Source: a virus. From it: a stretch of DNA of 60,871 bases. Below the pieces are notes generated by a model. It did no database searches. It worked only from the letters and a program-made list of their open reading frames with translations, and had not been told where the DNA came from. Below are positions 121 to 42,580 of the stretch, piece after piece. A program made the position numbers and the translations under genes. Position 1 is the stretch's first letter. The number at the start of each line of letters is the position of its first letter. The stretch lies in IMG/VR virus record IMGVR_UViG_3300006033_000003. One strand, given 5' to 3'.

Positions 121-3100
121 CTTCGGGCGGGGTTGACTTCTTGAAACGAGCACTGGCGGGCTTGGGTGCCGCGCTGTCCGTTCGGGAGCTGGTCCGACTT
201 CTGGACACCTACACCAACCTGCAGAACCGCCTCCGCGCCACGGGCCTGGAGGGCCAGAAACTCGGGGCCGTGTACCAACAGTTGTTGGACGTGGCGAACT
301 CCACCCGATCCTCCCTGGAGGGGACGGTTGAGATGTACAGCCGAATGGCGCTGGCCGCGAAGGAGTTGGGCGTCAGCCAGCAGGAGGTCATCAACTTCAC
401 CAAGTCCCTGAACCAGGCGGTGAGCCTGTCCGGGGCGTCTGCGACCGAAGCCCAAGCGGCAATGATTCAGCTGTCTCAGGGCCTTGCCTCCGGTCGATTG
501 TCCGGGGACGAACTCCGAAGTGTGCTGGAACAGCTCCCGGTGGTGGCTGACGTCATCGCCAAGGAGTTGAAGGTCACGCGGGGCGAACTGAAGAAGATGG
601 GGGAGGACGGCAAGATCACCGCTGACGTGGTGATGCGCGCCTTCCGGAACGCCAAGACCGAACTGGCGGACCGCTTCGGCAAGTCCGTTCCGACCATCAG
701 CCAGTCCTTCCAGGTCCTGAAGAACAACGTCATCGACTTCGTTGGGCGTCTGGACACCGCCAGCGGCATCTCCGGGGTCCTCTCCCGGGGCCTCATGTTC
801 CTGGCCAACAACCTGGACACCATCGCCAAGGTGGTTGCTTCCGTGGCCGTGGCCTTCGGAGTCTGGGTGGGCATCCCCGCGCTGGTGAACCTGATCACCG
901 CTTCCGTGAACCGGCTCACCGCCGCGATCATGGCCAACCCCATCGGCTTCCTTGTTGTCGCCGCCACCGCCGCGATCACCGCCCTGACCCTGTTCCGGGA
1001 CGAAATCAACATGGGGGTGGACGACATCACGACCTTGGGCGACATGATGCGTGCAGTCGGGGAGGTCATCGGGGCTACCTTCGGACGCATCTGGGAGTGG
1101 GCCCAACAGACCTTCGGACCGCTGGTGCGGTTGGTCCAGGACGTTGTTGGTGAGATGGACATCAGCTTCATCGGAGTCCTCCGCGCCGTTGCCCGCTACG
1201 TGGACGGTGTCGTGGGCTTCTGGTCCGGAGCCTTCAACGTCATCGTGGCGCTGTTCCGAACCCTTCCCGCCGTGATTGGGGACCTGGTCACCCAGGGCCT
1301 GAACGTGGTGCTGGACAAAATCGGGACCTTCGTGAACTCCGCCGGTCAGCTCCTGAGCACCGTGACGGAGTTCGCGGGCCTGGGCAAGATTGCCGCCGTG
1401 GACCTGAAGCTGACCAACGAGAACGCCGGAGCCGCCGCCCGTCTTGGGACCGACTTGGGCAACGCCTTCTCGGAGGGTTGGAACTCCTCGAACTTCGCCC
1501 GGAACGCGCTGGACGGACTTACCACGCGTGCCCAGGAAATCGCACGGGAGCGCACGAAGGAAGCGCCCGCCGTGGACCTATCCCAGGCCGGTCCCCGCAC
1601 GGCTCCGCTGATGGACCCGGAGAAGCTGAAGAAGATGAAGGATGAGCTGGCCGGTGTCGTGGGCAAGTACGACAGCGTGTGGGCCGCTCAGGAGGAGGTC
1701 CGGAAATCCACCGACATCCTGAACAAGTCTGTTGCCGCCGGTCTGATCACTCGCAAACGCGCCAACGAGGTCATCGCGCTGATGAACCAACAGCTGCGCG
1801 ACCAGTTGGACCCGCTGGGGGCCGTGAACCGCGAACTGACCGACCAGCAGCGCCTCCTCGGGTTGAATTCGGACGCCCGCGAAATCGAGACGCAGGTGAT
1901 GACCATCGAGAAGGACTTGCGCCAGCAGGGCGTGAACCTGAACGAGAAGGAACTGGCGCAGCTCCGCGAACGCCTCACGCTCATCCAAGCGGAGACGAAG
2001 GCCGCTGAAGCCCGGAACCGGGTCATGGAAGCCGTCCTTGGGCCGCAGAAGGAGTTTGCCCAGGACCTCCAGGCCCTGAACGCCCTCCTGAAGTCCGGAG
2101 CGATCACCCAACAGCAGGCGAACGGATACATTGTTCAGTCGCAACAGGAACTGTTCGCAGGGACTTCCGCCGCCCAGGACGCCCTGGTGGCGAAGTACCA
2201 GCAAACCTTCGACCGCATCAAGCAGATGCGAGACGCGGACCTCATCAGCGAAACCCAAGCCAATCAGATGCGCCAGATGCAGGCGACTCAGATGGCCCGG
2301 GACCTGATGAACCTCCAGCTCCAGATGGCCCAGACCCGCCTTGAAATGGGTTCCGGGACCTGGGCGGACGCCGCGCTGGTGAGCCTGGGCAAGGTCCAGG
2401 AGGGCTTCACGACCTTCGAGGCCGGAGCCTCCCAGGCCATGGGCAACTTCTTCACGTCCTTCACGGACGGCTTCGCCAACTCGGTGGGCCGCGCCATCGT
2501 GTACTCGGAGGACCTGGGAGACGCCTTGGGCAACGTGGCCCGGGAAGCCGTGGCGGGGCTCATCTCCGCGCTGGTCAAGCTCGGGATTCAGTGGCTGGTG
2601 AACGCCGCCCTGGGTCAGACGCTGGCCGGAACTGCGCAGGCAACAACCGTTGCGATGTCCGCAGCTACGGGTACAGCGATTGCCGCCGCCTACGCTCCTG
2701 CTGCCGCTATGGCGTCCCTGGCGTCCTTCGGCGCCAACGCCGCGCCTGCCATGGCCGGTATCTCGGCAACGACCGCCCTGAGCGAGTCCCTGGCGCTGGC
2801 GTCCATGGTGGGCTTCAAGGACGGGGGCTACACGGGCGAAGGCGGAGTGAACCAAGTCATGGGCGTGGTCCACGGGAAGGAGTTTGTGATGAACGCCCAA
2901 GCGACCGCCGCGAACCGCCCCATGCTTGAAGCGATGAACCGGGGAGCCGTGGCCGTCTCGGGCGGAGGAACCGGCGGAGGAGCCCCCGTGAGCATCAGCA
3001 TCGAGAACTACGGGACCAGCAAGGACTTCGAGGTGCAGCGCCTGAGCGAAGGGGACATCAGGATCATCGCCCGCGATGAGGCCAAGTCCGTCATCCGGAA

Positions 3101-3197
3101 CGAAGCGCCCGCCGTCATCTCCGCCGAAATCAGCAACCCGAACAGCAGCGTGTCGAAGTCCCTGTCCAGGAACACGAACGCCCAACGGAGACGCTAA
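27..3197 (+). CDS. tail tape measure protein
   Basis: 1056-aa ORF immediately after the chaperone/frameshift pair and before the lambda M/L/K/I-J-like set. It has long helical Q/E/A/L-rich stretches, hydrophobic central segments and a Gly/Ala-rich C-terminal region. Confidence 0.85.
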   Translation: MATERIDIVITERGSRVVQRNLQDIGGTARAASGGVDFLKRALAGLGAALSVRELVRLLDTYTNLQNRLRATGLEGQKLGAVYQQLLDVANSTRSSLEGTVEMYSRMALAAKELGVSQQEVINFTKSLNQAVSLSGASATEAQAAMIQLSQGLASGRLSGDELRSVLEQLPVVADVIAKELKVTRGELKKMGEDGKITADVVMRAFRNAKTELADRFGKSVPTISQSFQVLKNNVIDFVGRLDTASGISGVLSRGLMFLANNLDTIAKVVASVAVAFGVWVGIPALVNLITASVNRLTAAIMANPIGFLVVAATAAITALTLFRDEINMGVDDITTLGDMMRAVGEVIGATFGRIWEWAQQTFGPLVRLVQDVVGEMDISFIGVLRAVARYVDGVVGFWSGAFNVIVALFRTLPAVIGDLVTQGLNVVLDKIGTFVNSAGQLLSTVTEFAGLGKIAAVDLKLTNENAGAAARLGTDLGNAFSEGWNSSNFARNALDGLTTRAQEIARERTKEAPAVDLSQAGPRTAPLMDPEKLKKMKDELAGVVGKYDSVWAAQEEVRKSTDILNKSVAAGLITRKRANEVIALMNQQLRDQLDPLGAVNRELTDQQRLLGLNSDAREIETQVMTIEKDLRQQGVNLNEKELAQLRERLTLIQAETKAAEARNRVMEAVLGPQKEFAQDLQALNALLKSGAITQQQANGYIVQSQQELFAGTSAAQDALVAKYQQTFDRIKQMRDADLISETQANQMRQMQATQMARDLMNLQLQMAQTRLEMGSGTWADAALVSLGKVQEGFTTFEAGASQAMGNFFTSFTDGFANSVGRAIVYSEDLGDALGNVAREAVAGLISALVKLGIQWLVNAALGQTLAGTAQATTVAMSAATGTAIAAAYAPAAAMASLASFGANAAPAMAGISATTALSESLALASMVGFKDGGYTGEGGVNQVMGVVHGKEFVMNAQATAANRPMLEAMNRGAVAVSGGGTGGGAPVSISIENYGTSKDFEVQRLSEGDIRIIARDEAKSVIRNEAPAVISAEISNPNSSVSKSLSRNTNAQRRR

Positions 3198-3670
3198 TGG
3201 ACAAGTTTCAAATCCCGCCCGACAGCGCGGGCTACTCGGTCACGGACGGCAAGGAGGTCATCGCCATTCAGCTGGACGGCGGTGCCGCCCGCTACCGCCG
3301 GGACATCCTCAACGCCAACTCGAAGGTCACTTGTCAGTGGTCCTTCGACCGCGATGAGTACCAGTACATGCGCTCATTCTACAAGACCGCAACCAGCAAC
3401 GGCTCCCTTCCGTTCCTGATCGACCTGGCGCTGGACGAACCCACCCTGACGGAGCACCAAGCCTACTTCGTCCCCGGGTCCGTGATGCTCCGGGAGCAGC
3501 GGGGCCATCTGTACGTGGTGTCCGCCGAACTGGACGTGAAGCCCATCCCGCGTGACGCCGCCTATGACGAAGGAGTGGTGATGATCTGGAGCAACTACGC
3601 TCCGGAGCCCGCCGTGTTCCTGAACGCCCTGGAGCAACTGGTCAACGTGGACCTCCCGGAGGCAATGTAA
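3197..3670 (+). CDS. minor tail protein (position of lambda gpM / distal tail)
   Basis: 157-aa ORF whose ATG overlaps the tape-measure stop (TAATG). The call rests on synteny only. Confidence 0.45.
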   Translation: MDKFQIPPDSAGYSVTDGKEVIAIQLDGGAARYRRDILNANSKVTCQWSFDRDEYQYMRSFYKTATSNGSLPFLIDLALDEPTLTEHQAYFVPGSVMLREQRGHLYVVSAELDVKPIPRDAAYDEGVVMIWSNYAPEPAVFLNALEQLVNVDLPEAM

Positions 3671-3671
3671 C

Positions 3672-4499
3672 ATGAGCCGCTTCAGTGAGTTCTTCCTCAA
3701 CTCCCGGTCCTCCGTGGTCCAGCTGGAACTGATCCAAATCAGCCACCCCAGCTTCTCGAAGGACTACCGCCTGGTGCGCAACGCGGTGAACGGGGTGACG
3801 GTGAACGGCTTGGGCCAGTACGGTCGAAACCTGTTCAACGTCTCCGCGTCCGACAACGTGGCTGGCTACTACATAAGCCATACGGGAACGCTGACGGCGG
3901 ACCCCAACTACAACACCACGGGGTTCATTCCCGTTCTACCGGGCCAGACCTACTCTGCCAGCTACAACAACATGAGGTCCTTCTATGGACCCAACAAGCA
4001 ATTTGTCACCGGAAACCCCCTGGGGAGCCCCGCAACCTTCACCGTTCCGGAGGGTTGCTATTGGGTTCGAGCTACGGTGTATGTGAGCTCTTGGTCCACG
4101 TTTGTGCTGGCGCAGGGCTCCTCCGCCGGGGACTTCACGCCCTGGGGTCAGGCCAGCTTCGACTACTACCCGATGAAGATTGAAAACAACGGAAGCCGGG
4201 ATGACCTGGATCAATCCTTCACCTTCTCCTGGGGTGACTTGGGCGAAGTCCTGCCGACCGAACTGGACCGCGTGGCCAGATCCGGGGGCTTCGGGTTCAA
4301 GCCTCAAGTTGTGTACCACACCTACAGGTCTGACGACACGACCGCTTCGCTGTTTGGGCCCGTGGTCATGGAGGTTGAATCCTTCGCCTTCAACAGGGAC
4401 GGCTCCACGTTCACGGCCAAGGCCCCTTCGCTGAACATCAACAAGACCGGGGAAATCTACACCCTGGAGCGGTTCCCGATGCTGCGAGGCTTCCTGTGA
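3672..4499 (+). CDS. minor tail protein (gpL/DUF1833-like) with an inserted carbohydrate-binding-like module
   Basis: The N-terminus (VVQLELIQISHPSF..YRLV) and C-terminus (FTFSWGDLG...FGFKPQVVYHTYRSDD...) look like a tail-tip protein. The middle ~110 aa (GYYISHTGTL..GFIPVLPGQTYSASY..FYGPNKQFV..TFTVPEGCYWVRATV) matches the module duplicated in CDS 7732-9087. Confidence 0.5.
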   Translation: MSRFSEFFLNSRSSVVQLELIQISHPSFSKDYRLVRNAVNGVTVNGLGQYGRNLFNVSASDNVAGYYISHTGTLTADPNYNTTGFIPVLPGQTYSASYNNMRSFYGPNKQFVTGNPLGSPATFTVPEGCYWVRATVYVSSWSTFVLAQGSSAGDFTPWGQASFDYYPMKIENNGSRDDLDQSFTFSWGDLGEVLPTELDRVARSGGFGFKPQVVYHTYRSDDTTASLFGPVVMEVESFAFNRDGSTFTAKAPSLNINKTGEIYTLERFPMLRGFL

Positions 4500-4852
4500 G
4501 CCTTGATTCCTTCTTTGATAGGCGGTACAATCGTGACACGTACAACTGTGCTCACTTTGCTGTGGAAGTGTGGGAAGCCCTGACTGGTCAGAATATCGCC
4601 CAGGAGCTGACCGGCTTCCTTCGGCCCGTTGCTGAACGAAGAACGGACCCCGGACTGCGCAGGACGTTCCGCAAGCTGACCGCTCCGGAGACGCCCTGCC
4701 TGGTCCTGATGCAGCGAAACCGGAGCACGCCGCACGTGGGGGTGTACGTTCGGGGGAACGTCATCCATATCCACGAGAACGGAGTTGAGTGCCTTCCCCC
4801 GGAGATTGCCACACGAGGGTTTGCCCGCATAGGATACTACACACCATGTTGA
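4496..4852 (+). CDS. tail tip NlpC/P60-like cysteine peptidase (lambda gpK C-terminal-like)
   Basis: GTG start overlaps the upstream TGA. Cys motif YNCAHFAVEVW, then His residues in TPHVGVYVRGNVIHIHENG, in the order expected for an NlpC/P60 catalytic Cys-His-His. Sits in the lambda K position. Confidence 0.6.
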   Translation: MSLDSFFDRRYNRDTYNCAHFAVEVWEALTGQNIAQELTGFLRPVAERRTDPGLRRTFRKLTAPETPCLVLMQRNRSTPHVGVYVRGNVIHIHENGVECLPPEIATRGFARIGYYTPC

Positions 4853-7716
4853 AACAAGTCACGCTTGCCCAAAACCCGCTGGAGCCGGACACCTGGACCC
4901 ACCACGAGGTGGAGGACGTGCGGGACTTCCTGATGACGGAGTTCAGTGAGTGGCCGTCCTCCGCCCGCATCTACCATGAGCGGGTGAGCGAGCAGGACGA
5001 TGTCACACCCGGGGACGAAGCCGGGATTGAGCGCCTGGGCAAACTCCCCGGGCCGTTCTACGTTGTGGTGTACCCGGCGGACCCCGTGACCATCATCATC
5101 GCGGTGGTGGCCGTTGTCGTGGTGGCCGCTGTGGTGCTCAAGCCCAGCATTCCGACTCCGACCCTGCGCAACACGCAGAACTCCTCCCCGAACAACGAGC
5201 TGTCCGACCGAACAAACAACCCGCGCCCCTTGGCCCGCATTCCGGACATCTTCGGCACGGTCCGATCCACTCCGGACCTTCTGGCCGTCCCGTACAAAGT
5301 GTACAAGGACCATGAGGAGGTGGAATATGCGTACATGTGTATTGGGCGGGGAAGCTATGACGTGAGCGACATCCGGGACGACAACACCCTGGTGGTGGAC
5401 ATCCCCGGAACGTCCGTGGAAGTCTATGGGCCCAACACCTCCCCGAACTCCGGCAGCGCCCCTCAGCTGCGCATCGGAACCGCGATCAACAAGCCCGTGT
5501 ATGACGTGGCCCGCTCGAATGCGGTCAACGGTCAAGTCCTCCGACCTCCGAATGATCAAAGCATCCGGGGGGTCAACAACATCTACTTTCAGGGACCCAA
5601 CCTCATCCGCACTTCCGCCTTCGACTTCACGGACAAGTTTGCCGCCGGTGACGTTCTGTACGTGACCGGAGCCGCCGTGTATCAGGCCTACATCAATCAG
5701 ACCAAGACGTTGTACGCCTACAGCAACGGCTTCCGCTTCGTCATCCCCAACAGCACGCTTCCTTCGGAGTACGCCACCGGAGCGGAGATTCAGCTGACGG
5801 GTGCGCTGTTTTCCGTGACGGACCCGGACGGCTTCTGGTCCAGCAGCTATGACCTCAGCGGGGTGTACACCATTGCCTCGAAGTCTCTGGAGACGGTGAC
5901 GGACCCCGAAGGAGGGGGCACGACCTACTATTGCCGCGTGGTCCTGAACTCCCCCGCCACGATCAACCCGCAGTGGAACAGCGTGGTTCAGGGGTCCTCC
6001 GCCTCCGTGGGCATTCGACTGTCCAGCGGAGCGGAGTTGTACAACCTCAACGGCACGTACACCGTCCTGTCCGTGGCGGACGACACGATCACGTTGTCCA
6101 ACCCCGCCGCTGTGAACAGCTACTGGAGCAGCCTGAGCACCTCCCCGAACCTTAGCCCGACCTTGTACACCACGGGCTCGAAGTGGGTTGGGCCGTTTGT
6201 CCTAGACAAGACCAATACCAGCGTGGTGGTTGCAAACTTCGTGGCCACCAACGGTCTGTACAAGGATGACGGGAAGAACCAGGTGCGCTTCGACGTGACC
6301 TTGGAGCTGGAGATCACCCCGATCAACGCGGACGGCTCCGTGCGCGGGGCGGTTCAGACCGCCCAGGCAACGGTGGAGGGTTCCGCCACCTTCCGCAGCA
6401 CGCGGGCCGTCACCCTGGAACTAGGTGTGAACAGCCCGGGCCGCGTGCGCGTAAGGGCACGCCGCGTGACGAACGCTGACCTGGCCTTCGAGGGTTCCGT
6501 GGTCGATGAGATCAAGTGGCGGGACGTGTACGCCTTCGCTCCGATTGGCGTGACGAACTTCGGGAACGTGACCACGGTCCAGGCCGTTACCTACGCAACC
6601 GCCGGAGCCCTGGCGCTGAAGGAGCGGAAGCTGAACATGCTGGTCACGCGCAAGTTGCCGGCCCGGGTGTCGGGTTCCAACTTCACTTCGGAGCTGTACC
6701 CCACAAACAAGGCGGAGGACATCCTGAGCTTTATCTGCCGGGACCCGTTCATTGGAAACCGCCGGGACTCCGAAGTTGACTATGACAACTTGTACAATAC
6801 GCTGAGTGAGGTCCGAAGCTATTTTGGGGCTGCTTCAGCCGGGGAGTTCAGCTACACCTTCGACTCCGACAACCTGAGCTTCGAGGAGACGGCCCAGATC
6901 ATCGCCAACGCTACCTTCTGCGTGGCCTATCGCCGGGGCTCCCTGATCAAGTTGAAGTTCGAGAAGGCGACCGACGATAGCATGCTGCTGTTCAACCACC
7001 GCAACAAGCTACCCGGCTCCGAACTGCGCACGGTCCGCTTCGGGAACCTGAACAACTACGATGGTGTGAGCCTCAGCTACGTCTCCCCGGATGACGATGC
7101 GTTGGTCACCTACTACATCCCGGAGAACCGCAGCGCGATCAACCCGCAGGAAATCGAGACGCTGGGCGTGCGCAACGGGCTCCAGGCCTACTTCCACGCC
7201 TGGAGGGCCTGGAACAAAATCCGCTACCAGAATATCATCAGCGAGTTTACCGCCACTCAGGAAGCGGACCTGCTGGTGCAGTCCGACCGCATACTCATCG
7301 CGGACAACACCCGGGGAACCACCCAGGACGGAGAAGTGGTTGGGCAGAACGTCCTTCAACTGGAGTTGTCGCAGCCGGTCCAGTTCACTTCCGGGGTCAA
7401 TTACACCATCTTCCTCCAGCACACGGACGGGACGGTGGAAAGCCTGGGCGTGACTTCGACGGCGGACCCGTACAAGGTTGTTTTGGCTCAAGCGCCGCGC
7501 CTTCCGCTGGCGCTGGACCCCTCCCTTTATGCGCGCACCGGCTTTATACTTATTGGTGACGATGAGCCCAGGGGCAGCGCCTTCCTGCTGGTTGAGAAGG
7601 AACCGCAGACCAACTTCACGTCCACCGTCCGGGCCGTGAACTATGATGCCCGCTACTACGGGCAGGACAAAGACTTCATCAACGGCGTGGTGAACGCGAA
7701 TGGCGTGCGCCTGTAA
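4846..7716 (+). CDS. tail tip / host specificity protein J-like with a fused gpI-like N-terminus
   Basis: ATG at 4846 overlaps the upstream stop. The N-terminal ~110 aa end in a hydrophobic run (FYVVVYPADPVTIIIAVVAVVVVAAVVL), as in lambda gpI. The ~850 aa that follow occupy the gpJ position. Confidence 0.6.
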   Translation: MLKQVTLAQNPLEPDTWTHHEVEDVRDFLMTEFSEWPSSARIYHERVSEQDDVTPGDEAGIERLGKLPGPFYVVVYPADPVTIIIAVVAVVVVAAVVLKPSIPTPTLRNTQNSSPNNELSDRTNNPRPLARIPDIFGTVRSTPDLLAVPYKVYKDHEEVEYAYMCIGRGSYDVSDIRDDNTLVVDIPGTSVEVYGPNTSPNSGSAPQLRIGTAINKPVYDVARSNAVNGQVLRPPNDQSIRGVNNIYFQGPNLIRTSAFDFTDKFAAGDVLYVTGAAVYQAYINQTKTLYAYSNGFRFVIPNSTLPSEYATGAEIQLTGALFSVTDPDGFWSSSYDLSGVYTIASKSLETVTDPEGGGTTYYCRVVLNSPATINPQWNSVVQGSSASVGIRLSSGAELYNLNGTYTVLSVADDTITLSNPAAVNSYWSSLSTSPNLSPTLYTTGSKWVGPFVLDKTNTSVVVANFVATNGLYKDDGKNQVRFDVTLELEITPINADGSVRGAVQTAQATVEGSATFRSTRAVTLELGVNSPGRVRVRARRVTNADLAFEGSVVDEIKWRDVYAFAPIGVTNFGNVTTVQAVTYATAGALALKERKLNMLVTRKLPARVSGSNFTSELYPTNKAEDILSFICRDPFIGNRRDSEVDYDNLYNTLSEVRSYFGAASAGEFSYTFDSDNLSFEETAQIIANATFCVAYRRGSLIKLKFEKATDDSMLLFNHRNKLPGSELRTVRFGNLNNYDGVSLSYVSPDDDALVTYYIPENRSAINPQEIETLGVRNGLQAYFHAWRAWNKIRYQNIISEFTATQEADLLVQSDRILIADNTRGTTQDGEVVGQNVLQLELSQPVQFTSGVNYTIFLQHTDGTVESLGVTSTADPYKVVLAQAPRLPLALDPSLYARTGFILIGDDEPRGSAFLLVEKEPQTNFTSTVRAVNYDARYYGQDKDFINGVVNANGVRL

Positions 7717-7731
7717 GCAAAGGAGAACGAA

Positions 7732-9087
7732 ATGGCAGTGATCACGAAACAGGAACTTGAGGACGCATCGGTTGATGCATACTCCTTGGAGCGGATTGTC
7801 AACGGTTCCGCCACCGAAAACGGAACCGGCCTGGTCACTACCCGACTGGGACAGCAAGTTAAGACAGTAGCCAAGATTGCTTCTGAGTTGGCAACTCAGG
7901 ACATCGGGGGGATGGCTGCTGCCCAAATAAATCAGCGAGTGGATGCTGTTCAGGCCGAACTGGACGCAGCCCCGATAGTGGCCCCGGGAAAAAACTTGCT
8001 GGACCACAGCGCCTCCTCGCTGGACACTATTCTCAACAGCGCCGGCAGTCTATCTACCCAGTCGGGTTGGGCCACTAGTTCGCATATTCCGGTGACCCCA
8101 AACACAACCCTGAGCGTAAACACTCAGCGGTTCTGTGCCGAGTACGATGCAAACAAGGTTTTCATTTCCGGGACCTTCTTTGATCCCGTATCCCCAGCAG
8201 CTCGGACATTCACGACCAACGCAAATACTCGGTTTTTGAGGGTCACTTACTCGAAAACCGCCAGCGTCCAGGTGGAGTACGGGAGCAGCGTCACGACCTA
8301 CGAAGCGTACAAAGAACGCGTGAGGGCTCCGGACGGAGGCCCGCTGCTGGCAGACAATACGGAAAACGTGCACCCGTCCTTGGTGAACGTAGTTGCGGAT
8401 ATTGCGACCAACCGCCAATATGGGGAGGATACCTATTTCAAACAAAAAGACCTTAAACTGGAAACCTCGAACCTCATTAAGGCTTTCAACATAGGCTACA
8501 TTCTGGGGGTGGGCGGAGCCCTGGCGGCACAGTCGGGTTGGAAAACTTCGGATTATGTGGCGGTAAGCCCCAGCACTTCCTACGCGATCAGCGTTGTACG
8601 GTTTTTGGCTTTTTATGATTCCAACAAGGTTCTTATTGGGACCCTGACAAGCCAAGACCCGCAAACGCAGTTGTCGGTTACTTCTCCATCAAACGCTGCC
8701 TTCATGAGGGTCACGGCGGGGGAGAACTCCTATCTGTACGCCAACCAAGGAACAACCCTGTCCGTTCCCGTGACTCACGTCCGGGCCTTTGAGCAGCTAT
8801 TCCTTCCGGAGCTGAGGGCCAGTTTGAGGGCTTGGATGCGTTCGGAGTCCTACACGGTGACCTCCACCATAACCTACCGCCCGGACGGCAGGCCCGTCTC
8901 TCCTTTGAATATTGTCTGGCCCAACGGGGCTACTGGGACACTGTCCCTGACCTACAACACGGACGGTACAGTGTCTGAACTGACAGCAACGCACGTTCTC
9001 AACGGTTTGTCCACTACGATTAAACAGCCCGCCATCACGTACACCAACGGGCTTCCGTCTCAGATTCCGGCCATCACCATTTTCTAA
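7732..9087 (+). CDS. tail fibre / receptor-binding protein with a tandemly duplicated CBM-like module
   Basis: Two internal repeats: SGWATSSHIPVTPNTTLSV..FCAEYDANKVFISG..TFTTNANTRFLRVTY and SGWKTSDYVAVSPSTSYAI..FLAFYDSNKVLIG..SVTSPSNAAFMRVTA. Has an SD (AAAGGAG) and sits downstream of the J-like gene. Confidence 0.55.
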   Translation: MAVITKQELEDASVDAYSLERIVNGSATENGTGLVTTRLGQQVKTVAKIASELATQDIGGMAAAQINQRVDAVQAELDAAPIVAPGKNLLDHSASSLDTILNSAGSLSTQSGWATSSHIPVTPNTTLSVNTQRFCAEYDANKVFISGTFFDPVSPAARTFTTNANTRFLRVTYSKTASVQVEYGSSVTTYEAYKERVRAPDGGPLLADNTENVHPSLVNVVADIATNRQYGEDTYFKQKDLKLETSNLIKAFNIGYILGVGGALAAQSGWKTSDYVAVSPSTSYAISVVRFLAFYDSNKVLIGTLTSQDPQTQLSVTSPSNAAFMRVTAGENSYLYANQGTTLSVPVTHVRAFEQLFLPELRASLRAWMRSESYTVTSTITYRPDGRPVSPLNIVWPNGATGTLSLTYNTDGTVSELTATHVLNGLSTTIKQPAITYTNGLPSQIPAITIF

Positions 9088-9104
9088 ACAGAACGAGGTC
9101 CACC

Positions 9105-12041
9105 ATGTCTCTCTTGTCTCCCACCCGCATCAAAGCAATGCCCGTCAACGAGCGGATGCAGCTTGTGTCCACCGCGACTTCGGCGGTGTACACCAACCTG
9201 AACGTCGAAATTCAAAAAGACCTCACCCTGGTGGTTGTCAACTCGAACTCCAACACGGACTACGCCGGGGCCACCCTTTCCCTTACCGGGACCAAGCTGA
9301 ATAACGCGGGAGGTTTTTGGTTCACCTCCGCCCTCTCCCCTATTCAGGGGGGGGAACTGACCAACAACGTGCTGTCTCTCAAGCGTGGAACCACCACCCT
9401 GAAGGTATCTTCGGTCAACCTGTCGGAGTACAAAACCATCCGCCTGGACGTTACTGGCACGGCAGACTCCACCGTGAACGTCTATGCTATCTGGGACGAT
9501 GCTGCCCCCCTGGGCGATTGGATCACAGTTAGCGCCTCCGCTCCTCTGTCCAAGTTCAAAACCACCGAAAAGAACTGGAAATTGACCATCATCCCCAAAG
9601 GGGTCGATGACAACAACTTGGTCCGCGTGTACACTACGAAAAACGGCGGGGTGTGGTCCAGCTCCGACCTTCTGTCCAAATACCCGCTGACGCAGGTGGA
9701 CAACTACGTGTACATCACCACCCCCACTGAAATCTACCTCAACAACATCTACCAACTGGCGGAAGTTCTGCTCATCGTGAGCTGCACAGGCACTGCGACC
9801 GCTGCCGTCAAGGTTGAGTCTCCGGACGAACCCGTGGATGCGTCGGAGTTCTACAAAAAGCTGTTCACCACTGCGGTGAACAGCGGTTCCGCTTACAATT
9901 TCGTTCCCGACCTGCGGGCAACCCACGTCCTGTGCCGGATTGACAGCACTCTGGTTTCTGGCGGGTCCGCCGTGGTCCACCTATACCCGCGAAGCACTGA
10001 CAATCTGTCTTTGTCTGCGTTGTTCAATGAGCCCGGGTCCTCCTCAGCTCCGTCCAACTCCGTCAGTATCACCACGAGCGACACACGCTACCTCTACCTG
10101 CCCCGGACCGTCCAGCTGGGCAAGGTTCACGCGGATTGCGTCATGACCGGCACCGGGAACTCGGTGCGGGTTTCGATGGCCAACTATTTTGGCGAACTGC
10201 CCAAGGCGGCGGAAGCTGCTGCCGGTGCTGTGACCTCCAACCTCTACTCGGGGGAGGGCTTCAGCGTCGATCGGCACGCAACTGCCCGGCAGTTTGCTGC
10301 TTACGAAAACTGGACGGCCAGCGTCAGTTTGTCGGACGTGCTCACCGTGTCGGTCGGCTCCAACTCCGCTCAAGTCTCACTTTCCGCTCTCCCGGGTTGG
10401 AAGTCGGGCGACACCATTGGCGCCATGGGCTTCATTCCCTACCGCCAGGGCGGCCCAACTGCCGCCAACTACAGCCGCGAAACCGCCATGCGGCTGTGTT
10501 TCTTCACGCGACTGGGCAACATTTACCACAACTACCCGGCTGCAGCTTCGGACGATTCGACCACTTCGGGGGGCATGGGGGCCTTCGACCTGTCTGCGGT
10601 CTATGAGCCCGTGGTATGGTCTGGCGGCACCGTGCTCTCGTCTGAGCGCATCCCGTCGAACAACCCCGCGTTGACGGCGGATGAGAAAAAGCTGTACCGC
10701 TACGAACCTGGTTTGCCTTCCTGGAACTACAACCAACACACGAACAACGTGGGCGGCCTGAAGGCGGACGGTTCCGCATATGGCGGTGGCGGACTGCCCC
10801 CGGTGATGGACAAAAACGGACTCAAGCTGATCCGGATGGTCCACCCGTTCGAGTTCGGAACCAATCCACAAGACGCATCCAAGCCCTACCAAATGTCGGG
10901 CTACCTGTCCAACCCCTTCTCGGTGAAGCCCAAGTGTACCATCTACACCCCCTACAACGGCCTCAACGTCTGCAAAAACGTAGTCTTGGGGACAACTGAC
11001 GGCGGACGTATCTGGGTGGTCCTCCACGAGTTGGGCTGCAACTCCGTCCAGGCCATCTGCGGCAACAATTTCGATTACTCCGCCGTTGGTGCTTACACGT
11101 CGGGCGCATTGTCAGTCGTGAAGCGCACCTACATTTATCCGACCTCCTCGGTGAAGGACCCGGTCAATTGCTTCCAGTACGCCGATCCTATCAGCGTCAC
11201 CGCGATCACGACCACCGGCGGCAAGGCTTCCGTCACTACCTCTACCCCCCACGGATTCACCACGGGCGACCTGATCTGTTTCAAGAAAAACAGCTCAGGC
11301 AATTACGACTTCCTGGAGAACAGCGTCACGGTCGGCAATGCCGCCGCCTTCTCCAGCAACAGTGCGGGTGATGGCCGCTTCTACCGCGTGAAGGTCACAA
11401 GCACCACCACGTTCGAGTTGCTCCAAAACTACAACGGGGTGGACGAGAAAATCGCCACCCATCACATCCATAGTAGCAACCCGGCGAAGGACGGCACCTT
11501 GATTTGCTGCGGGGAGAAGTACCCGGCGGGTTGGATCCTGTTTGTGCGTATCCCCCAAATTGATGATTTTGAATATTTCTACATCTACCAGTACCGCATT
11601 TCAAACCGTTATATTTTCCGGCTGAACAGCTCCGAAACGGCCATGCAGCGGGCGGTGGGTATGGTTTGGAGGGACGACCAAGAACAGACATTCTTGTTTG
11701 CTTCCGATGAGCAAAACATTGCCCCCCGGCCCGTGACTATTCCGGGACGGGATGCCGCTGCAGTCCCCAGTCGCAATACCGCTGGAGTGTTCTTGGGCAA
11801 AATGGCGGACATTGACGACATCACCAAAGCCTACGTGGTCTGCGAAATGGAGGAAGCCTCCCTGGGCCTCATAAATGCTCAAAACATGTTTGTAGTTGTC
11901 GGGATGTCTCGCAAAACCTACCTGTCTGCAGACGGAAAGAACTGGGTCAGCTTCCCGCTCATCTGCCAATACGTGGGGGAAAGCAACGGAGCCCTGTATC
12001 TTCGGGCAGACACCTACGTGTACCGCGTGACGAAAACTTGA
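9105..12041 (+). CDS. large tail-associated protein, possibly a beta-propeller (Asp-box-like motifs)
   Basis: 978-aa ORF, the last of the tail module. One good Asp-box-like motif (TTDGGRIW) and two degenerate ones (TKNGGVWS, SADGKNWV). No other motif recognised. Confidence 0.4.
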   Translation: MSLLSPTRIKAMPVNERMQLVSTATSAVYTNLNVEIQKDLTLVVVNSNSNTDYAGATLSLTGTKLNNAGGFWFTSALSPIQGGELTNNVLSLKRGTTTLKVSSVNLSEYKTIRLDVTGTADSTVNVYAIWDDAAPLGDWITVSASAPLSKFKTTEKNWKLTIIPKGVDDNNLVRVYTTKNGGVWSSSDLLSKYPLTQVDNYVYITTPTEIYLNNIYQLAEVLLIVSCTGTATAAVKVESPDEPVDASEFYKKLFTTAVNSGSAYNFVPDLRATHVLCRIDSTLVSGGSAVVHLYPRSTDNLSLSALFNEPGSSSAPSNSVSITTSDTRYLYLPRTVQLGKVHADCVMTGTGNSVRVSMANYFGELPKAAEAAAGAVTSNLYSGEGFSVDRHATARQFAAYENWTASVSLSDVLTVSVGSNSAQVSLSALPGWKSGDTIGAMGFIPYRQGGPTAANYSRETAMRLCFFTRLGNIYHNYPAAASDDSTTSGGMGAFDLSAVYEPVVWSGGTVLSSERIPSNNPALTADEKKLYRYEPGLPSWNYNQHTNNVGGLKADGSAYGGGGLPPVMDKNGLKLIRMVHPFEFGTNPQDASKPYQMSGYLSNPFSVKPKCTIYTPYNGLNVCKNVVLGTTDGGRIWVVLHELGCNSVQAICGNNFDYSAVGAYTSGALSVVKRTYIYPTSSVKDPVNCFQYADPISVTAITTTGGKASVTTSTPHGFTTGDLICFKKNSSGNYDFLENSVTVGNAAAFSSNSAGDGRFYRVKVTSTTTFELLQNYNGVDEKIATHHIHSSNPAKDGTLICCGEKYPAGWILFVRIPQIDDFEYFYIYQYRISNRYIFRLNSSETAMQRAVGMVWRDDQEQTFLFASDEQNIAPRPVTIPGRDAAAVPSRNTAGVFLGKMADIDDITKAYVVCEMEEASLGLINAQNMFVVVGMSRKTYLSADGKNWVSFPLICQYVGESNGALYLRADTYVYRVTKT

Positions 12042-12049
12042 GAACGGTA

Positions 12050-12077
12050 GAAGGCGGAGCGGAGGGGCTCCGCCTTC
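12050..12077 (+). terminator. GC-rich hairpin after the tail module (terminator-like, no U-tract)
   Basis: Perfect 11-bp stem GAAGGCGGAGC / GCTCCGCCTTC with a 6-nt loop, 9 nt after the stop of CDS 9105-12041. Confidence 0.4.
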
Positions 12078-12134
12078 CCCAAAGGAGGGGTGACGTTATA
12101 CAATACCGGAACTTTTGAAACGGAGAATCACCCC

Positions 12135-12497
12135 ATGTCCCTTACGCCCAAGGAAATCGAGGAGCTGGCCGTGTCCGCCGCGACACGTGCAGCCAAAGCC
12201 GAAGTTGAAGAAGCAGCGGAACGCGCCGCTGAAGCCGCCGCCCGAAAGGTGACGCTGACCCCGGACGAAGTGAGTCACATGGTGGCCGAAGCCGTCCGAC
12301 AGACCCTGATCCAGATGGGCATTGACATGTCCGACCCGCTGGCGATGCAGCGGGACTTCCAGCACCTTCGTCAATGGCGGGAGTCCGGGGAGGACCTGAA
12401 GAAGAAGGGCACCGTGGCCCTCCTCGGCATCTTCCTCTCGGGCCTAGGCACGCTGGTCCTCCTGGGCCTGAAGGAGTTTCTGAGCAAGGCCCCCTGA
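12135..12497 (+). CDS. hypothetical protein with a C-terminal transmembrane helix
   Basis: ATG preceded by GGAG (aaacggagaatcacccc). Ala/Glu-rich helical N-terminus; C-terminal TM segment VALLGIFLSGLGTLVLLGL. Confidence 0.55.
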   Translation: MSLTPKEIEELAVSAATRAAKAEVEEAAERAAEAAARKVTLTPDEVSHMVAEAVRQTLIQMGIDMSDPLAMQRDFQHLRQWRESGEDLKKKGTVALLGIFLSGLGTLVLLGLKEFLSKAP

Positions 12498-12813
12498 GCT
12501 GCGCTTACCTTCGACCGCGTGCGCTTACCTTCGGAGCTATCCCAAGCGCACGTAAGTTCCAGCCCCCGTGGGAATTACTTACCTTACTTGGGATACTTAC
12601 CTTGAAATGCGGTTCGCCCGATAAATCGGCGGGAGGCCCAGGGAAATCCTCCTGGGGCTTTCAAGGTAAGTAAGGTAAGTAAGTTAAGTAATAATAATAA
12701 TAAATATATATAAGTCTATGATTTTATGGAACTTCTGTGCGCTTACCTTTACAAGAAACTGACTGGTCGAAGGTAAGCGCAACGCTGTGTTTCTGGGCGT
12801 AAGGTAAGCGCAA
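12498..12813. repeat. AT-rich iteron / inverted-repeat island A (paralogue of 45811-46140)
   Basis: - Five copies of GAAGGTAAGCGC or its complement: 12501, 12521, 12739, 12769, 12800.
- Perfect 16-bp inverted repeat, 12501-12516 / 12765-12780.
- Perfect 15-bp inverted repeat, 12575-12589 / 12668-12682.
- Pure A/T run at 12689-12713.
- 54-bp block 12660-12713 identical to 45985-46038. Confidence 0.9.
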
Positions 12814-12820
12814 GTGTTCG

Positions 12821-12852
12821 GGCTTCCCTCGGAAGTCTCCCCGGGCTATACT
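12821..12852 (+). promoter_or_regulatory. promoter candidate, class 2 (GGCTTCCC-N18-TATACT)
   Basis: gGGCTTCCCtcggaagtctccccgggcTATACTtcttc. The extended -10 CTATACTTCTTC matches the class 1 sites. It lies 43 nt upstream of the SNF2 start. Confidence 0.55.
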
Positions 12853-12894
12853 TCTTCAGCCGAACCGAAACGCATTCAGAAAAGGAGTCCACGC

Positions 12895-14610
12895 GTGGAA
12901 TATCAGTTCAAGACCGCCCCCTTCAACCACCAGAAGGAGGAGTGGGAGCGCAGCCGGGAGGAAATCGCCCGGGGCATCTTCTGGGAACAGGGCACCGGGA
13001 AGTCCAAGCTGACCATCGACACCGCCTGCTGGCTGTGGCGCCGGGGCCTCATCGACGGGGTGCTGGTGGTCGCACCGAACGGGGTGCACCGCAACTGGAC
13101 TGAGAAGGAAATCCCGGATCACATACCGGACGAGGTGATTGGGCACGTCCGCGCCTTCCATTACCAGTCCCCCCGGGCGGACACGAAGTGGCACAAGCAG
13201 GCGGTCAAGGCCGTCATTGAGCACAAGGGCTTCGCGTGGCTGACCATCAGCTATGACGCCTTCACAACCGCCGCCGGGAAGCGTGCGCTGATCGACTTCT
13301 TCGACAAGCGCCGCCTCCTGTACGTCCTGGATGAGGCCCACTACATCAAGACCCCAACGGCGGAGCGCACCAAGTCCATCCTCCGCTCCGCGAAGTACGC
13401 CCCCTTCAGACGCATCCTGACCGGGACCCCGATTGCGCAGGGTCCCTTCGACGCCTACAGCCAGATCAAGTTCCTGTATGACGACTACTGGAAGAAGGCC
13501 GGGTTGGGCACCTTCACGGAGTTCAAGGCCCACTTCGGGGTGTTCGAGAAGGTCTGGAACCCGAACGTCACCCGCTCCTTCGACCCGGTGAAGCAACGCT
13601 GGGTGGACAGTGACGGCTCATACGTGGACGTGCTCAAGGGCTACCGCCGCCTGGACGAACTGAACGCCCTCCTGCAGCCCGTCTCCTCCCGCGTGACGAA
13701 GGATGACGTGCTGGACCTCCCGCCCAAGCTGTACAGCAAGCGCCCGTTCCCGATGACGGAGGAGCAGCGGAAGCTGTACCGCCAGATGAAGGATGAATTC
13801 ATCGTCTGGCTTGAGCTGGGCGGAGCGGAGAAGGAAGCCGCCGCCCTTCAGGGTTCCCTGCCGCTGGAGGACGCCTGCCCGACTTGTCACGGCAAGCGGG
13901 AGTTGGAGGTGGACGGCTACATCTACCCGTGCCCCGACTGCGCGGACACTCCGGACCTTGGGCAGAACGGCACCACCCCCGTCATCGCCGCGCTGGCCAT
14001 GACCCGGCTCCTCCGCCTTCAGCAGATCACCTGTGGGTATCTGCCCACGGACGATGAAAGTGAGCCCATGTACGTCATCCCGGGGACGAACCGCCGCCGG
14101 GAGCTGCTTTGCGACCTGGTTGAAGAAGCGCAGCACAAGGTTATTGTCTGGGCCCGGTTCCAGCTGGACATCACGCTCATCCTGGAGGAGCTGCGCCGCC
14201 GGGGCATCCGCGCCGTCCGCTATGACGGCCAGGTGAACGATGACGAACGGGCGGAGGCCAAAGCCCTGTTCCAAGGGGAGCGGACGCTGTATGACGGAGC
14301 GCAGGTGATTGGGCGGGAAGCCGTCCCGCCGGAGGAGCAGGCCAAGGTGTTCGTGGGCAACCCCGCCGCCGGGGCTACGGGCCTGACATTGACTGCCGCC
14401 AAGACCGTCATTTATTATTCCAACAGCTTCAAGTTGATCGACCGCCTACAATCGGAGGACCGCGCCCACCGCATCGGTCAGGACAACAGCGTGCTGTACA
14501 TCGACCTGGTGGCGGAGGACTCCGTGGATGAGAAGGTTGTCGAAGCCTTGAGAAACAAGTTCAATGTGGCGTCCCAGATCACTGGCGACCGCCTGAAGGA
14601 ATGGCTATGA
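12895..14610 (+). CDS. SNF2-family helicase/ATPase with an inserted zinc ribbon
   Basis: GTG at 12895 lies 7 nt after AAAGGAG; the track ORF extends further upstream to 12814. Motifs: GTGKS, DEAH (VLDEAHYIK), TGTPI, QSEDRAHRIGQ. A CPTCHGK...CPDC insertion sits between the two RecA-like lobes. Confidence 0.85.
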   Translation: MEYQFKTAPFNHQKEEWERSREEIARGIFWEQGTGKSKLTIDTACWLWRRGLIDGVLVVAPNGVHRNWTEKEIPDHIPDEVIGHVRAFHYQSPRADTKWHKQAVKAVIEHKGFAWLTISYDAFTTAAGKRALIDFFDKRRLLYVLDEAHYIKTPTAERTKSILRSAKYAPFRRILTGTPIAQGPFDAYSQIKFLYDDYWKKAGLGTFTEFKAHFGVFEKVWNPNVTRSFDPVKQRWVDSDGSYVDVLKGYRRLDELNALLQPVSSRVTKDDVLDLPPKLYSKRPFPMTEEQRKLYRQMKDEFIVWLELGGAEKEAAALQGSLPLEDACPTCHGKRELEVDGYIYPCPDCADTPDLGQNGTTPVIAALAMTRLLRLQQITCGYLPTDDESEPMYVIPGTNRRRELLCDLVEEAQHKVIVWARFQLDITLILEELRRRGIRAVRYDGQVNDDERAEAKALFQGERTLYDGAQVIGREAVPPEEQAKVFVGNPAAGATGLTLTAAKTVIYYSNSFKLIDRLQSEDRAHRIGQDNSVLYIDLVAEDSVDEKVVEALRNKFNVASQITGDRLKEWL

Positions 14611-24331: not shown

Positions 24332-24886
24332 ATGAAGTACATCAACGTGCGGGGCTGTAACGGCTCCGGCAAGACTACCCTGCTGCGCAGCCTCGCAACC
24401 GATTCGCTGTGCCGCGTCTCGAACGCGAACATGGGCGACCTTCACAAGCCCATCCCCGTCACCTACTGCCCGGGCGGCATCGCCATCATCGGTGACTACA
24501 CGCCCGCCGCCGCCGGTTCTACCACCGCTGGCCTGGACCGTATCAAGACCCAAGCCGCCGCCAAGGCCGTCATCGAGTTCGTGGGCAAGGACCCGGGGGT
24601 GAAGGCCGTCCTGTTCGAGGGCGTGGTGGTCAGCACCATCTACGGTCCGTGGCAGGAGTGGTCGAAGGCGAACGGCGGGATGATCTGGGCCTTCCTGGAC
24701 ACCCCGCTCCAGACCTGCCTGGAGCGCATCCAGGTTCGCAACGGCGGGAAGCCGATCAAGGAGGACCAGGTGGCCGACAAGCACCGCACCATCGCCCGGG
24801 TCCGCGACAAGGCCCTGGCCGACAAGGAAACCGTGCTGGACCTGCCCTGGCAGGACGCCCGCGCCGCCCTCCTGGCCGTCATCTGA
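24332..24886 (+). CDS. P-loop kinase, candidate 5-hydroxymethyl-dU DNA kinase
   Basis: N-terminal Walker A VRGCNGSGKTTLL. 184 aa. Lies directly between the radical SAM gene and the aGPT-Pplase-like gene. Confidence 0.55.
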   Translation: MKYINVRGCNGSGKTTLLRSLATDSLCRVSNANMGDLHKPIPVTYCPGGIAIIGDYTPAAAGSTTAGLDRIKTQAAAKAVIEFVGKDPGVKAVLFEGVVVSTIYGPWQEWSKANGGMIWAFLDTPLQTCLERIQVRNGGKPIKEDQVADKHRTIARVRDKALADKETVLDLPWQDARAALLAVI

Positions 24887-24897
24887 GGAACCCAGAC

Positions 24898-31451: not shown

Positions 31452-31842
31452 AGCCGCGATGTGGGACGCCCTCCGCCCGGTGATCAAGCACCTTGATCCC
31501 GTGCGCGTGGAGAACCCCGCTGGGCCGGGGACTCCGGACGTCAACTACATCGAGGGTTGGGTGGAGCTGAAATATGCGGAGCAGTGGCCCCCACGGGGCG
31601 GACCGCTTCGGATTGATCACTTCACCCAACAGCAACGGGTCTGGCTCACCCAACGCCGGCATGCCGGCGGGCGGGCCTTCCTTCTCCTGAAGGTTGGCGA
31701 GAATGAATGGTTGCTGTTCGACGGAGCGGTGGCCGCGAAGGTCCTGGGCCACGTGGAGCAGGACAAATTGTACCGGGCGTGCCTGGCCCGCTGGACCAGG
31801 AAGCCCAAGACTGAGGAGATTTGTAGATGGCTGCAGAACTGA
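31444..31842 (+). CDS. VRR-NUC / PD-(D/E)xK nuclease
   Basis: GTPDVNYIEGWVELKY (D...ExK) followed by FTQQQRVWL...GGRAFLLL, the VRR-NUC pattern. Confidence 0.6.
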   Translation: MSEAAMWDALRPVIKHLDPVRVENPAGPGTPDVNYIEGWVELKYAEQWPPRGGPLRIDHFTQQQRVWLTQRRHAGGRAFLLLKVGENEWLLFDGAVAAKVLGHVEQDKLYRACLARWTRKPKTEEICRWLQN

Positions 31843-32156
31843 CGTTGAGCCGGGGGGAAGCCCTCCTGGTTGAGCGCCGCCGCCGGGGCCTGAATCAGGT
31901 CCTGGCCGCTGGTGAGTGGAAGGTCCACCCGGACAAGTACCGGGAGTGGGAAGCGGACCGCCGGGACGATACCCCGGAGGTGGGGGTGGGCGAACTGAAG
32001 CCGCATGAGGTTTGCTATCTGAAGCGCCGCCGCTCGGGCAAGACCCAGCGCGAAATCGCCGCTGCCCTTGGGCTGACCCGCCTGTGGGTGATCATGATGG
32101 AGGACGGCAAGGCCCCCGTGGACCGGCTTGTTGAGTATTGGGGAGCCAACGCATGA
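31827..32156 (+). CDS. helix-turn-helix DNA-binding protein
   Basis: SGKTQREIAAALGLTRLWVIMMEDG is an XRE-like HTH. Confidence 0.55.
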   Translation: MAAELTLSRGEALLVERRRRGLNQVLAAGEWKVHPDKYREWEADRRDDTPEVGVGELKPHEVCYLKRRRSGKTQREIAAALGLTRLWVIMMEDGKAPVDRLVEYWGANA

Positions 32157-42579: not shown

Positions 42580-42580
42580 G

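Follow-up and report, generated by a model that had tools for sequence, protein, structure and literature searches.

Which function does an AT-rich, repeat-laden and non-coding island serve at the place where the tail genes of a phage meet its replication genes? The question is raised by island A, which lies at positions 12498-12894 of a DNA window of 60,871 nucleotides (nt; IMG/VR virus record IMGVR_UViG_3300006033_000003), to which all coordinates refer unless another genome is named. The window is the complete circular genome, of about 60.7 kilobases (kb), of a YuA-like siphophage of the family Mesyanzhinovviridae: its bases 1-100 recur at 60772-60871 (a 200-base repeat is absent), which is why it must be a circular assembly, it runs collinear with Pseudomonas phage YuA, the replication, packaging and head genes being about 80% identical in nucleotide sequence, its close relatives are the Yuavirus members of the family, and its large genes are all encoded on the + strand. 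Island A has a paralogue, island B, where accessory and packaging genes meet, and both are dyad-symmetric, putative control modules at the two junctions of this circular, one-strand-coded genome. A first-pass annotation of island A, made from the letters alone, had proposed a replication origin and considered a multi-site operator/enhancer or a terminase recognition region to fit equally well. As a whole, this interpretation is partly supported, as the regulatory option comes closest to direct evidence, the homologous island of YuA holding mapped promoters and RNA ends, and the terminase site is unlikely. With a probability of about one half, island A serves both as a boundary to transcription and as its switch where the two genome halves meet, composed of face-to-face promoters and flanking hairpins.

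Predicted promoters and hairpins of island A

In YuA, the homologous islands lie between gp01 and gp02 (413-839) and between gp49 and gp50 (32840-33498) (NC_010116; PMC10914365). They are direct homologues of A and B with an identical order of elements, and the islands of the window can be aligned with them element by element. The YuA record, from the annotation of which the promoter-trap data of Ceyssens et al. 2008 were taken, places in the left inner arm of each island a sigma-70 promoter, its activity rated as medium, with -35 and -10 elements at 509-514 and 532-537 in the first and at 33048-33053 and 33071-33076 in the second (NC_010116). By ONT-cappable-seq, Putzeys et al. 2024 mapped the start of P002, classed as a phage promoter, to position 612 of the minus strand, and from there non-coding leftward transcription units extend to 411 and to 60; the termination sites T003 and T004 are RNA 3' ends at 471 (+ strand) and 411 (- strand), P003 starts at 814 downstream of GGGCTATACTTCC, and in the gp49|gp50 island promoter P014 follows (PMC10914365). 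Both 3' ends are found just past the hairpin GCGCTTGGG...CCCAAGCGC, which argues for a hairpin-dependent end, unlike a roadblock, at which RNA would end ahead of a bound protein, and with 3' ends on both strands the left hairpin is linked somehow to 3'-end formation. A check of the sequence showed that the 9-bp (base pair) repeats and (AAG)n, in reverse complement, make up the 50 nt upstream of P002, and by count TTACTT is placed at about -33 and TAAACT at about -14, which is the geometry of the phage-specific promoters. The corresponding parts of the window are as follows.

12498-12894: island A, intergenic, from the gp01-like gene (stop codon TGA at 12495-12497) to the SNF2 helicase gene (GTG at 12895)
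12500-12513 and 12520-12533, + strand: left outer arms, two direct copies of TGCGCTTACCTTCG, spacing 20 bp
12518-12552: left hairpin L, CGTGCGCTT / 17-nt loop / AAGCGCACG, homologous to YuA 417-468
12574-12607, + strand: inner left arm, resembling a rightward promoter and homologous to the one found by promoter trap in YuA
12613-12628, + strand: conserved 16-mer TTCGCCCGATAAATCG, pattern TTC[GT]CCCGAYAAATCG
12630-12658: central GC hairpin, CGGGAGG ... CCTCCTG, the apex of the palindrome
12659-12692, - strand: inner right arm, three 9-bp repeats AAGGTAAGT, AAGGTAAGT and AAGTTAAGT, an array of TTACTT hexamers
12689-12713: pure A/T tract of low complexity, (TAA)n followed by TATATA, conserved in its length of about 24 nt
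12712-12734, + strand: weak hairpin R1, directly after the A/T tract, from structure folding
12738-12781: right hairpin R2, perfect 12-bp stem TGCGCTTACCTT / AAGGTAAGCGCA with a 20-nt loop, from folding
12800-12812, + strand: distal right copy TAAGGTAAGCGCA, 31 bp past the previous copy
12822-12860, + strand: phage-specific promoter GGGCTTCCCTCGG ... GGGCTATACTTCTTCA, homologue of YuA P003, start predicted near 12860
12895-14610, + strand: gene of the SNF2-family helicase, the first of the replication and DNA-metabolism arm
14965, 14980, 20100, 22780, 31260, 34858, 39703, 40408 and 53585, + strand: TATACT starts of dispersed phage-specific promoters

The two inner arms are mirror copies of 34 nt with 85% complementarity, and this symmetry speaks for a face-to-face promoter pair. 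Their core is the perfect 15-bp inverted repeat at 12575-12589 / 12668-12682 that had been noticed before and was found again, and it is perfect over this length in the window lineage, unlike in YuA. The left arm contains TTACTT at 12575 and 12584 and a -10-like TACCTT (12598-12603) or TGAAAT (12603-12608), and the minus strand of the right arm matches the region upstream of P002, from the homology with which a leftward start is predicted near 12649. In YuA, the convergent pair consists of the + strand trap promoter and the minus-strand start at 612; the arms of the window are homologous to it and mirror-symmetric, but the -10-like hexamers differ. The hexamer TTACTT occurs 17 times in the genome, 12 times in the islands, 3 times before dispersed phage promoters, where it sits 23 nt ahead of TATACT, and twice elsewhere. 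The 11 copies in inner arms all face the centre, and the twelfth island copy (46100) belongs to island B, on the right-hand side of its right arm. The TATACT at 12847-12852 had correctly been called a promoter, as it belongs to the homologue of YuA P003 with its mapped start at 814: GGGCTTCCCTCGG-N12-GGGCTATACTTCTTCA aligns with P003 and has the -10 element TATACTTCTTCA and the upstream GCTT..C..TCGG of the YuA-type phage promoters. About 10 dispersed promoters of this class (CTTTACTTCTTCGG-N9-CACTATACTTCTTC) are contained in the window, those at 14965 and 14980 overlapping in tandem; in YuA, the class requires a phage factor.

It is proposed that the inner inverted repeat functions as a face-to-face promoter pair on TTACTT arrays, which would fire inward across the 16-mer and the GC hairpin, with predicted starts about 40 bp apart in the window and about 67 bp apart in YuA. 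The rightward promoter would be read by the host RNA polymerase alone, and the 16-mer would then be its first transcribed bases, or else a protein-binding site. The leftward promoter would belong to the phage-specific class and give rise to an antisense RNA, non-coding and about 150-200 nt long, that reaches back across the rightward promoter, and firing of the leftward promoter would silence the early rightward promoter by collision or occlusion. The outer repeats, formerly described as iterons, would pair locally as the flank hairpins L and R2 and end the transcripts of both strands, and as transcripts would end there, transcription of one genome half would stay out of the other; the phage-specific promoter with TATACT at 12847 would then start transcription anew toward the helicase operon. 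Four of these elements have been shown in YuA and are transferred to the window by homology, namely the promoter that fires rightward, the start of the leftward one, the RNA 3' ends at hairpin L and the promoter that follows downstream; the interference, the insulation and any protein that binds the repeats are what we infer beyond them.

Face-to-face promoter switches are known from pR/pL of coliphage 186, Pe/Pc of P2, and RNA II/RNA I of ColE1. Like these, the island would have promoters on opposite strands that lie tens of bp apart and fire inward, and transcripts that overlap at their 5' ends with a hairpin in the overlap. By analogy the comparison may hold to this point, but in the island the leftward strand is without genes, the module is present twice per genome, and a repressor pair and interference are hypothetical.

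Several points weigh against this interpretation. The direct transcription data come from YuA, and in the lineage of the window phage the inner -10-like hexamers are poorly conserved (TGAAAT/TGAAAA rightward, TGAAAG/TGAATT leftward), and neither inner promoter of the window passes a sigma-70 consensus scan. In YuA itself, ONT-cappable-seq reported no rightward start, and no leftward start in island B (PMC10914365). In a strict scan for intrinsic terminators no hairpin of the window or YuA islands passes, their loops having 17-32 nt. Promoters alone also leave 26 near-invariant bases unexplained, they do not require a microsatellite of constant length and free sequence, and they do not account for repeats at spacings of 20, 31 and 41 bp whose variants (GGG, ACC or AGG) change jointly in the two islands.

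Some of the same features could be read as a + strand small-RNA gene in the island core, from the left-arm promoter to hairpin R1 (about 120 nt), the product of which might bind Hfq or another protein and would have the 16-mer and the GC hairpin at its 5' end, followed by a single-stranded A/G/U-rich (ARN-like) stretch. The trap promoter of YuA is active on the + strand, R1 directly follows the A/T tract, the hairpin at its position ends in a terminator-like TTTTT in island B and in island B of YuA, the triplets of the repeat block mostly fit A-purine-N, and the base changes in the central and R1 stems are of a kind that G.U pairs allow, which favours the + strand, the central hairpin of island A pairing G.T where island B has C:G. 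Such a gene is nevertheless quite improbable, as no + strand start or 3' end has been reported at these places in YuA (PMC10914365), Rfam 15 was without a match, both over the full window at the gathering threshold and within 12400-12950 at E <= 1, the core RNA folds no better than shuffles in YuA, the (TATC)n variant of the microsatellite breaks the ARN pattern, and both the dyad symmetry and the inverted island centre of phage Epa43 (described below) would be left unexplained. A structured-RNA element of the put/nut kind was dropped because of the same core fold (from the 16-mer to the central hairpin, z is about 0 in YuA and -2.1 in island A), and the inversion in Epa43 also speaks against it. 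A sigma-54 promoter at 12728-12743 (TGGAAC...TGCGC) was rejected as well, as the spacing from GG to GC is 9 or 11 nt instead of 10 and the sequence is not conserved in YuA.

The palindrome and its second copy

All sequence features that had been listed for island A are present, with correct coordinates and sequences, and far above chance. The 12-mer GAAGGTAAGCGC has its five copies at 12501 (-), 12521 (-), 12739 (-, 1 mismatch), 12769 (+) and 12800 (+, 1 mismatch), and with up to 2 mismatches it matches 21 times in the window, compared to 3.9 +/- 2.0 times in shuffles. Its supposed confinement to two islands holds for the exact copies (5 of 5) and becomes looser when one mismatch is allowed, with 9 of 12 matches inside and 3 outside. 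The 8-mer AAGGTAAG occurs 21 times with 0.5 expected, and 17 of these occurrences are in the two islands. Clustered 11-mers are, genome-wide, island motifs only, and the other recurrent AT-containing 11-mer of the genome is the dispersed phage promoter CTATACTTCTT. The perfect inverted repeat on the outside exists but has 17 bp, not 16 (12500-12516 / 12765-12781), and the description also holds for both small hairpins, for the 9-bp series (from 12663) and for the pure A/T run. The gap between the genes had been taken as 316 bp and as one of the two largest non-coding stretches, of which the rank is right and the size is not: it measures 397 bp, as the helicase probably starts with the GTG at 12895, which is homologous to the start of YuA gp02. 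Other apparent gaps, near 20.8 and 24.3 kb, turned out to be coding, which leaves A and B as the largest two non-coding stretches; the 60-bp windows with the lowest GC content of the genome also fall into the two islands (0.15 and 0.17, the next lowest being 0.28).

When folded as single-stranded DNA, island A forms one long hairpin of -80.6 kcal/mol, compared to -40.5 +/- 3.8 kcal/mol for shuffles (z = -10.7), and the 3' arm of R2 is also complementary to the far-left repeat copies. Island A is thus a nested imperfect palindrome of about 320 bp and more than a set of repeats. The single-strand fold of island B likewise stands out against shuffles (z = -6.6), and its parts are the following.

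45813-46300: island B, paralogue of A, from the PD-(D/E)XK nuclease gene to the small terminase gene
45811, 45852, 46064 and 46125: copies of the 12-mer
45938-45953: the 16-mer
from 45988: 9-bp-repeat block running into the A/T tract, within a 77-column stretch identical to island A
46209-46237: sigma-70-like promoter TTGTCC-17-TATACT, homologue of YuA P014

The two islands can be aligned end to end, flanks included, with 75% column identity, and the identical stretch spans TTCAAGG through the A/T tract. The module is thus found at both junctions regardless of the class of the downstream gene, and this bears on the terminase recognition (pac) region that had been offered as one option. A start site of headful packaging would be in agreement with the position of island B directly upstream of the small terminase gene and with repeated motifs and intrinsically bent A/T DNA, which are typical of pac sites, but as the identical module precedes the helicase gene, about 33 kb away, the required uniqueness is missing. 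The family has moreover been reported to be circularly permuted without a defined genome start (PMC11946847), and mapped promoters and RNA ends explain the same sequences, so that a pac site is hardly probable at all.

The islands of the window and of YuA are direct repeats, and recombination between them could split the genome into two circles. The PD-(D/E)XK nuclease gene (45171-45812) extends as far as the first repeat of island B, and the TGA with which the gene stops shares two bases with GAAGGTAAGCGT. In a blastn comparison with YuA, no match of at least 300 bp was found over 2251-12878 (about 10 kb to the left of A) and 40370-46565 (about 6 kb to the left of B), and similarity returns on the right, after A with the start of the helicase gene and after B within terS, about 260 bp from the beginning of that gene. 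As similarity to YuA is lost on the left and regained on the right, the islands are located at mosaic boundaries, and they may act as recombination linkers or mark the places where genome modules are exchanged.

Conservation in relatives

Pattern scans of IMG/VR with two of the island motifs as bait retrieved 25 distinct islands. Across these the 9-bp-repeat block is invariant except for one G/T position, a constancy that is partly circular, as the islands were retrieved by those motifs. Near-identical blocks were found in an independent check in the loci L047, L077, L067 and L118 and in Bordetella phage CN2, of which CN2 and L118 were reached by other routes and hold near-identical versions of both bait motifs. 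The hairpins L, R1 and R2 are present in all 25 islands with varying stem sequences, and TTC[GT]CCCGAYAAATCG matched in both islands of the window and in every Yuavirus-type island retrieved, becoming degenerate at 56-73% helicase identity. The shared order is left repeats, a CTTA(CC/GG)TTACTT region, TTC[GT]CCCGAYAAATCG, the GC hairpin, AAGGTAAGTAAG[GT]TAAGTAAGTTAAG, a microsatellite of about 24 nt, ATATA, two hairpins, inverted copies of the left repeat, and the promoter. Within this order the central GC hairpin takes up 26 nt in the window lineage and about 65 nt in YuA, and the microsatellite is of constant length but can be (TAA)n, (AAG)n, (TATC)n or (TA)n; it is (TAA)n in both islands of the window and (AAG)n and (TATC)n in those of YuA. 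The flanking repeat is lineage-specific, with TGCGCTTACC in the window, TGCGCTTGGG in YuA and TGCGCTTAGG in CN2, the latter two being the counterparts of the left repeat TGCGCTTACCTTCG, and it can differ at the same site even between the window and L007, which are about 93% identical over the locus; L007 is one of three IMG/VR contigs (with L013 and L018) of about 90-93% identity to the window.

The second island precedes the small terminase gene in every relative looked at, and two islands per genome are also present in a contig of 59,446 bp and in two metagenomic contigs. In relatives with 56-95% helicase identity the gap measures about 400-440 bp, and at 73, 68, 62 and 56% the nested inverted repeats are kept, with arms that differ in sequence and yet stay complementary. 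In Stenotrophomonas phage Sonora, the arms TACTTCACTTACTCCG / CGGAGTAAGTGAAGTA are 100% complementary at a distance of 204 nt, and those of L120 are TACTCCCTTTACTT / AAGTAAAGGGAGTA. The conservation of the island in related phages, which had been suggested as a check, could thus be traced in front of the SNF2 helicase gene as far as Epa43, a phage of a different subfamily with 49% helicase identity. Epa43 has one island before the helicase gene and one before a pair of open reading frames in the terminase position, both are among its top three low-GC spots, and their repeats are unrelated in sequence to those of the window. The central 126 bp are 87% identical between the two islands and in opposite orientation (L081, 12236-12360 versus 42897-43021). 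Island-arm motifs common to dispersed promoters were not found in Epa43. With unrelated repeats and an inverted centre in Epa43, it is the dyad symmetry and the duplication that selection keeps.

A selfish or neutral palindromic repeat without function, similar to a miniature inverted-repeat transposable element (MITE) or a repetitive extragenic palindrome (REP) and duplicated in the genome, would also be a long imperfect palindrome in two copies. There are signs of gene conversion besides, namely the identical block shared by A and B, the island A hairpin of L018 that is identical to the B type, and variants that flip between close relatives. It is still very improbable that the islands are of this kind, as each of the lineages examined, the different subfamily included, has just two copies and has them at orthologous positions, several blocks are under strong purifying selection in a surrounding of coding DNA that is only about 80% identical, and no dispersed copies are found in phage or bacterial genomes outside the family.

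In bacterial genomes, the only matches were plain TAAGG-type repeats and one metagenome bin with YuA-type islands. The 21-mer of the 9-bp repeats is matched there by (TAAGG/TAAGT)n microsatellites of unrelated bacteria, among them Peribacteraceae, Patescibacteria and Streptomyces (within L083-L101), and as these lack the remaining island parts, they are probably unrelated to the islands. The bin is labelled Anaerolinea thermophila, and its contigs DYKZ01000001/2 (L085, L088, L091, L097; 111.8 and 81.4 kb) contain A- and B-type islands; they are probably phage DNA, possibly assembled from a concatemer, that was binned with a bacterium. The gene adjoining island A also varies: the SNF2 helicase homologues P0151, P0152, P0155 and P0190 have 867-878 amino acids instead of the usual number of about 570, and 2 of these 4 (P0152 and P0155) have a LAGLIDADG_3 domain, which suggests an intein or the insertion of a homing endonuclease.

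For YuA, individual promoters and RNA ends are already published and have been treated one by one. The duplicated, family-wide palindromic module with co-varying arms and a possible origin role is absent from the literature searched, to which Ceyssens et al. 2008 did not belong.

A possible role in replication

The features that promoters do not explain, which are the near-invariant bases, the microsatellite and the concerted repeats, are what an origin would predict. It is tentatively considered, as the main rival reading and one that is compatible with a transcriptional role, that the islands are the replication origins of the phage (oriA and oriB). The lineage-specific 10-12-mers in both orientations would then be candidate initiator-binding iterons, the three 9-bp repeats and the A/T microsatellite would be the assembly and unwinding region for a superfamily 3 (SF3) primase-helicase, and the face-to-face promoters would activate or prime the origin, or provide a control by antisense RNA as RNA I acts on RNA II in ColE1. 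The islands are the only iteron-like clusters and the two lowest-GC spots of the genome, as is also the case in YuA, and where at least three clustered non-coding copies would be expected of iterons, the 12-mer has 5 copies in island A and 4 in island B, next to an easily unwound tract of pure A/T (12689-12713). The repeat variants of a lineage, which are GGG in YuA, ACC in the window and AGG in CN2, change together in the two islands and on either flank, more distant relatives have unrelated repeat arms, the direct repeats are spaced by nearly whole helical turns (20, 31, 31 and 41 bp), and the A/T tract keeps its length and not its sequence, as would be expected if easy unwinding matters. 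The presence of two copies per genome and the inversion of the central segment between the islands of Epa43 fit as well, the latter because it means that the orientation relative to the genes does not matter.

Two neighbouring genes encode the proteins that could act on such an origin.

32138-34594, + strand: primase-helicase, candidate initiator, with an N-terminus that weakly resembles RepB primase, an SF3 helicase domain (P4-family/NrS-1-like) and, at the C-terminus, a winged-helix-like domain (residues about 680-790)
31827-32156, + strand: small HTH_31 (Xre-type) protein, overlapping the start of the primase-helicase gene by 19 bases, candidate binder of the lineage-specific repeats

The primase-helicase is 84% identical to its counterpart in YuA, and the HTH_31 protein 70% to YuA gp25. 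In a model based on an alignment of 47 sequences, the C-terminal domain of the primase-helicase is predicted to fold as helix-strand-helix-helix-strand-strand with a predicted local distance difference test (pLDDT) value of 82; a single-sequence AlphaFold model of the C-terminus had a pLDDT of 42, and a homologue search with the C-terminal fragment alone retrieved one protein. A Foldseek comparison of this domain with the PDB gave no significant match, the best being the winged helix of Cdc6 (E = 0.078) and the replication terminator protein (E = 0.084), which counts against an origin function, as do some further points. No replication data for any member of the Mesyanzhinovviridae were found in the literature searched, the collection of plasmids contains no similar sequence, RNA 3' ends past the hairpin fall where the left iteron pair is, which points to a role at the RNA level, and the minimum of the cumulative GC skew, a weak indicator in phages, is outside the islands, at 27.7 kb in the window and 15.3 kb in YuA. 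These two minima are homologous places near the genes of thymidylate synthase and DNA polymerase, and along the whole genome A exceeds T on the + strand. A DnaA box was rejected, as no more than TTATC is common to the box and the reverse-complemented 16-mer.

Precedents for such an arrangement are ori plus crr of P4, the origins of staphylococcal pathogenicity islands (SaPI) with iterons flanking an AT-rich stretch, and oriL and oriR of SPP1, and in T7 and T4 the origins consist of a promoter plus an unwinding element. In common with P4, SaPI and SPP1, short repeats in both directions flank a meltable tract and there are two separated cis regions per genome, and as in the P4 type the phage encodes a P4-family primase-helicase. 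Unlike in these systems, the islands are not adjacent to the primase-helicase gene, which is separated from them by 19 kb on its upstream side and by 11 kb on its downstream side, and the repeats would also form transcript-end hairpins, origin activity being only a proposal here. With the T7 and T4 origins, the islands share a promoter that is followed by an A/T-rich unwinding tract within about 50-100 bp, and the window phage has a family-A DNA polymerase; the analogy may not extend further, as the island promoters would be convergent and read by the host RNA polymerase, the tract comprises only 25 bp, and an R-loop or primer is hypothetical. That both roles are combined in twin origins of a new type is unlikely: in these, the face-to-face promoters of the nested palindrome would produce a primer or activator RNA together with an antisense RNA as in ColE1, both acting across the GC hairpin, the SF3 primase-helicase would assemble at the 9-bp repeats and the microsatellite, and fast-evolving flanking iterons would set the lineage specificity.

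No tRNA or tmRNA genes were found in the window. The region 24649-25833 encodes a 5-hydroxymethyldeoxyuridine (5-hmdU) DNA kinase (Pfam HMUDK_hel, E = 1.5e-53), and the phage thus probably hypermodifies its thymidines, like M6, which would strongly affect the A/T-rich islands.

YuA-like phages are common on Pseudomonas, Bordetella and Stenotrophomonas and are considered for therapy. With the islands, one conserved cis module that is present twice per genome is now defined, it unites the scattered published promoter and RNA-end data of YuA in one architecture and bears on the start of replication and the timing of transcription in these phages, and it gives exact targets for origin mapping, footprinting and work on promoter interference. 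If it is an origin or a switch, the module would be a useful part for the engineering of these phages, and if the twin-origin idea were true, it would couple the switch from early to late transcription to the initiation of replication across the Mesyanzhinovviridae.

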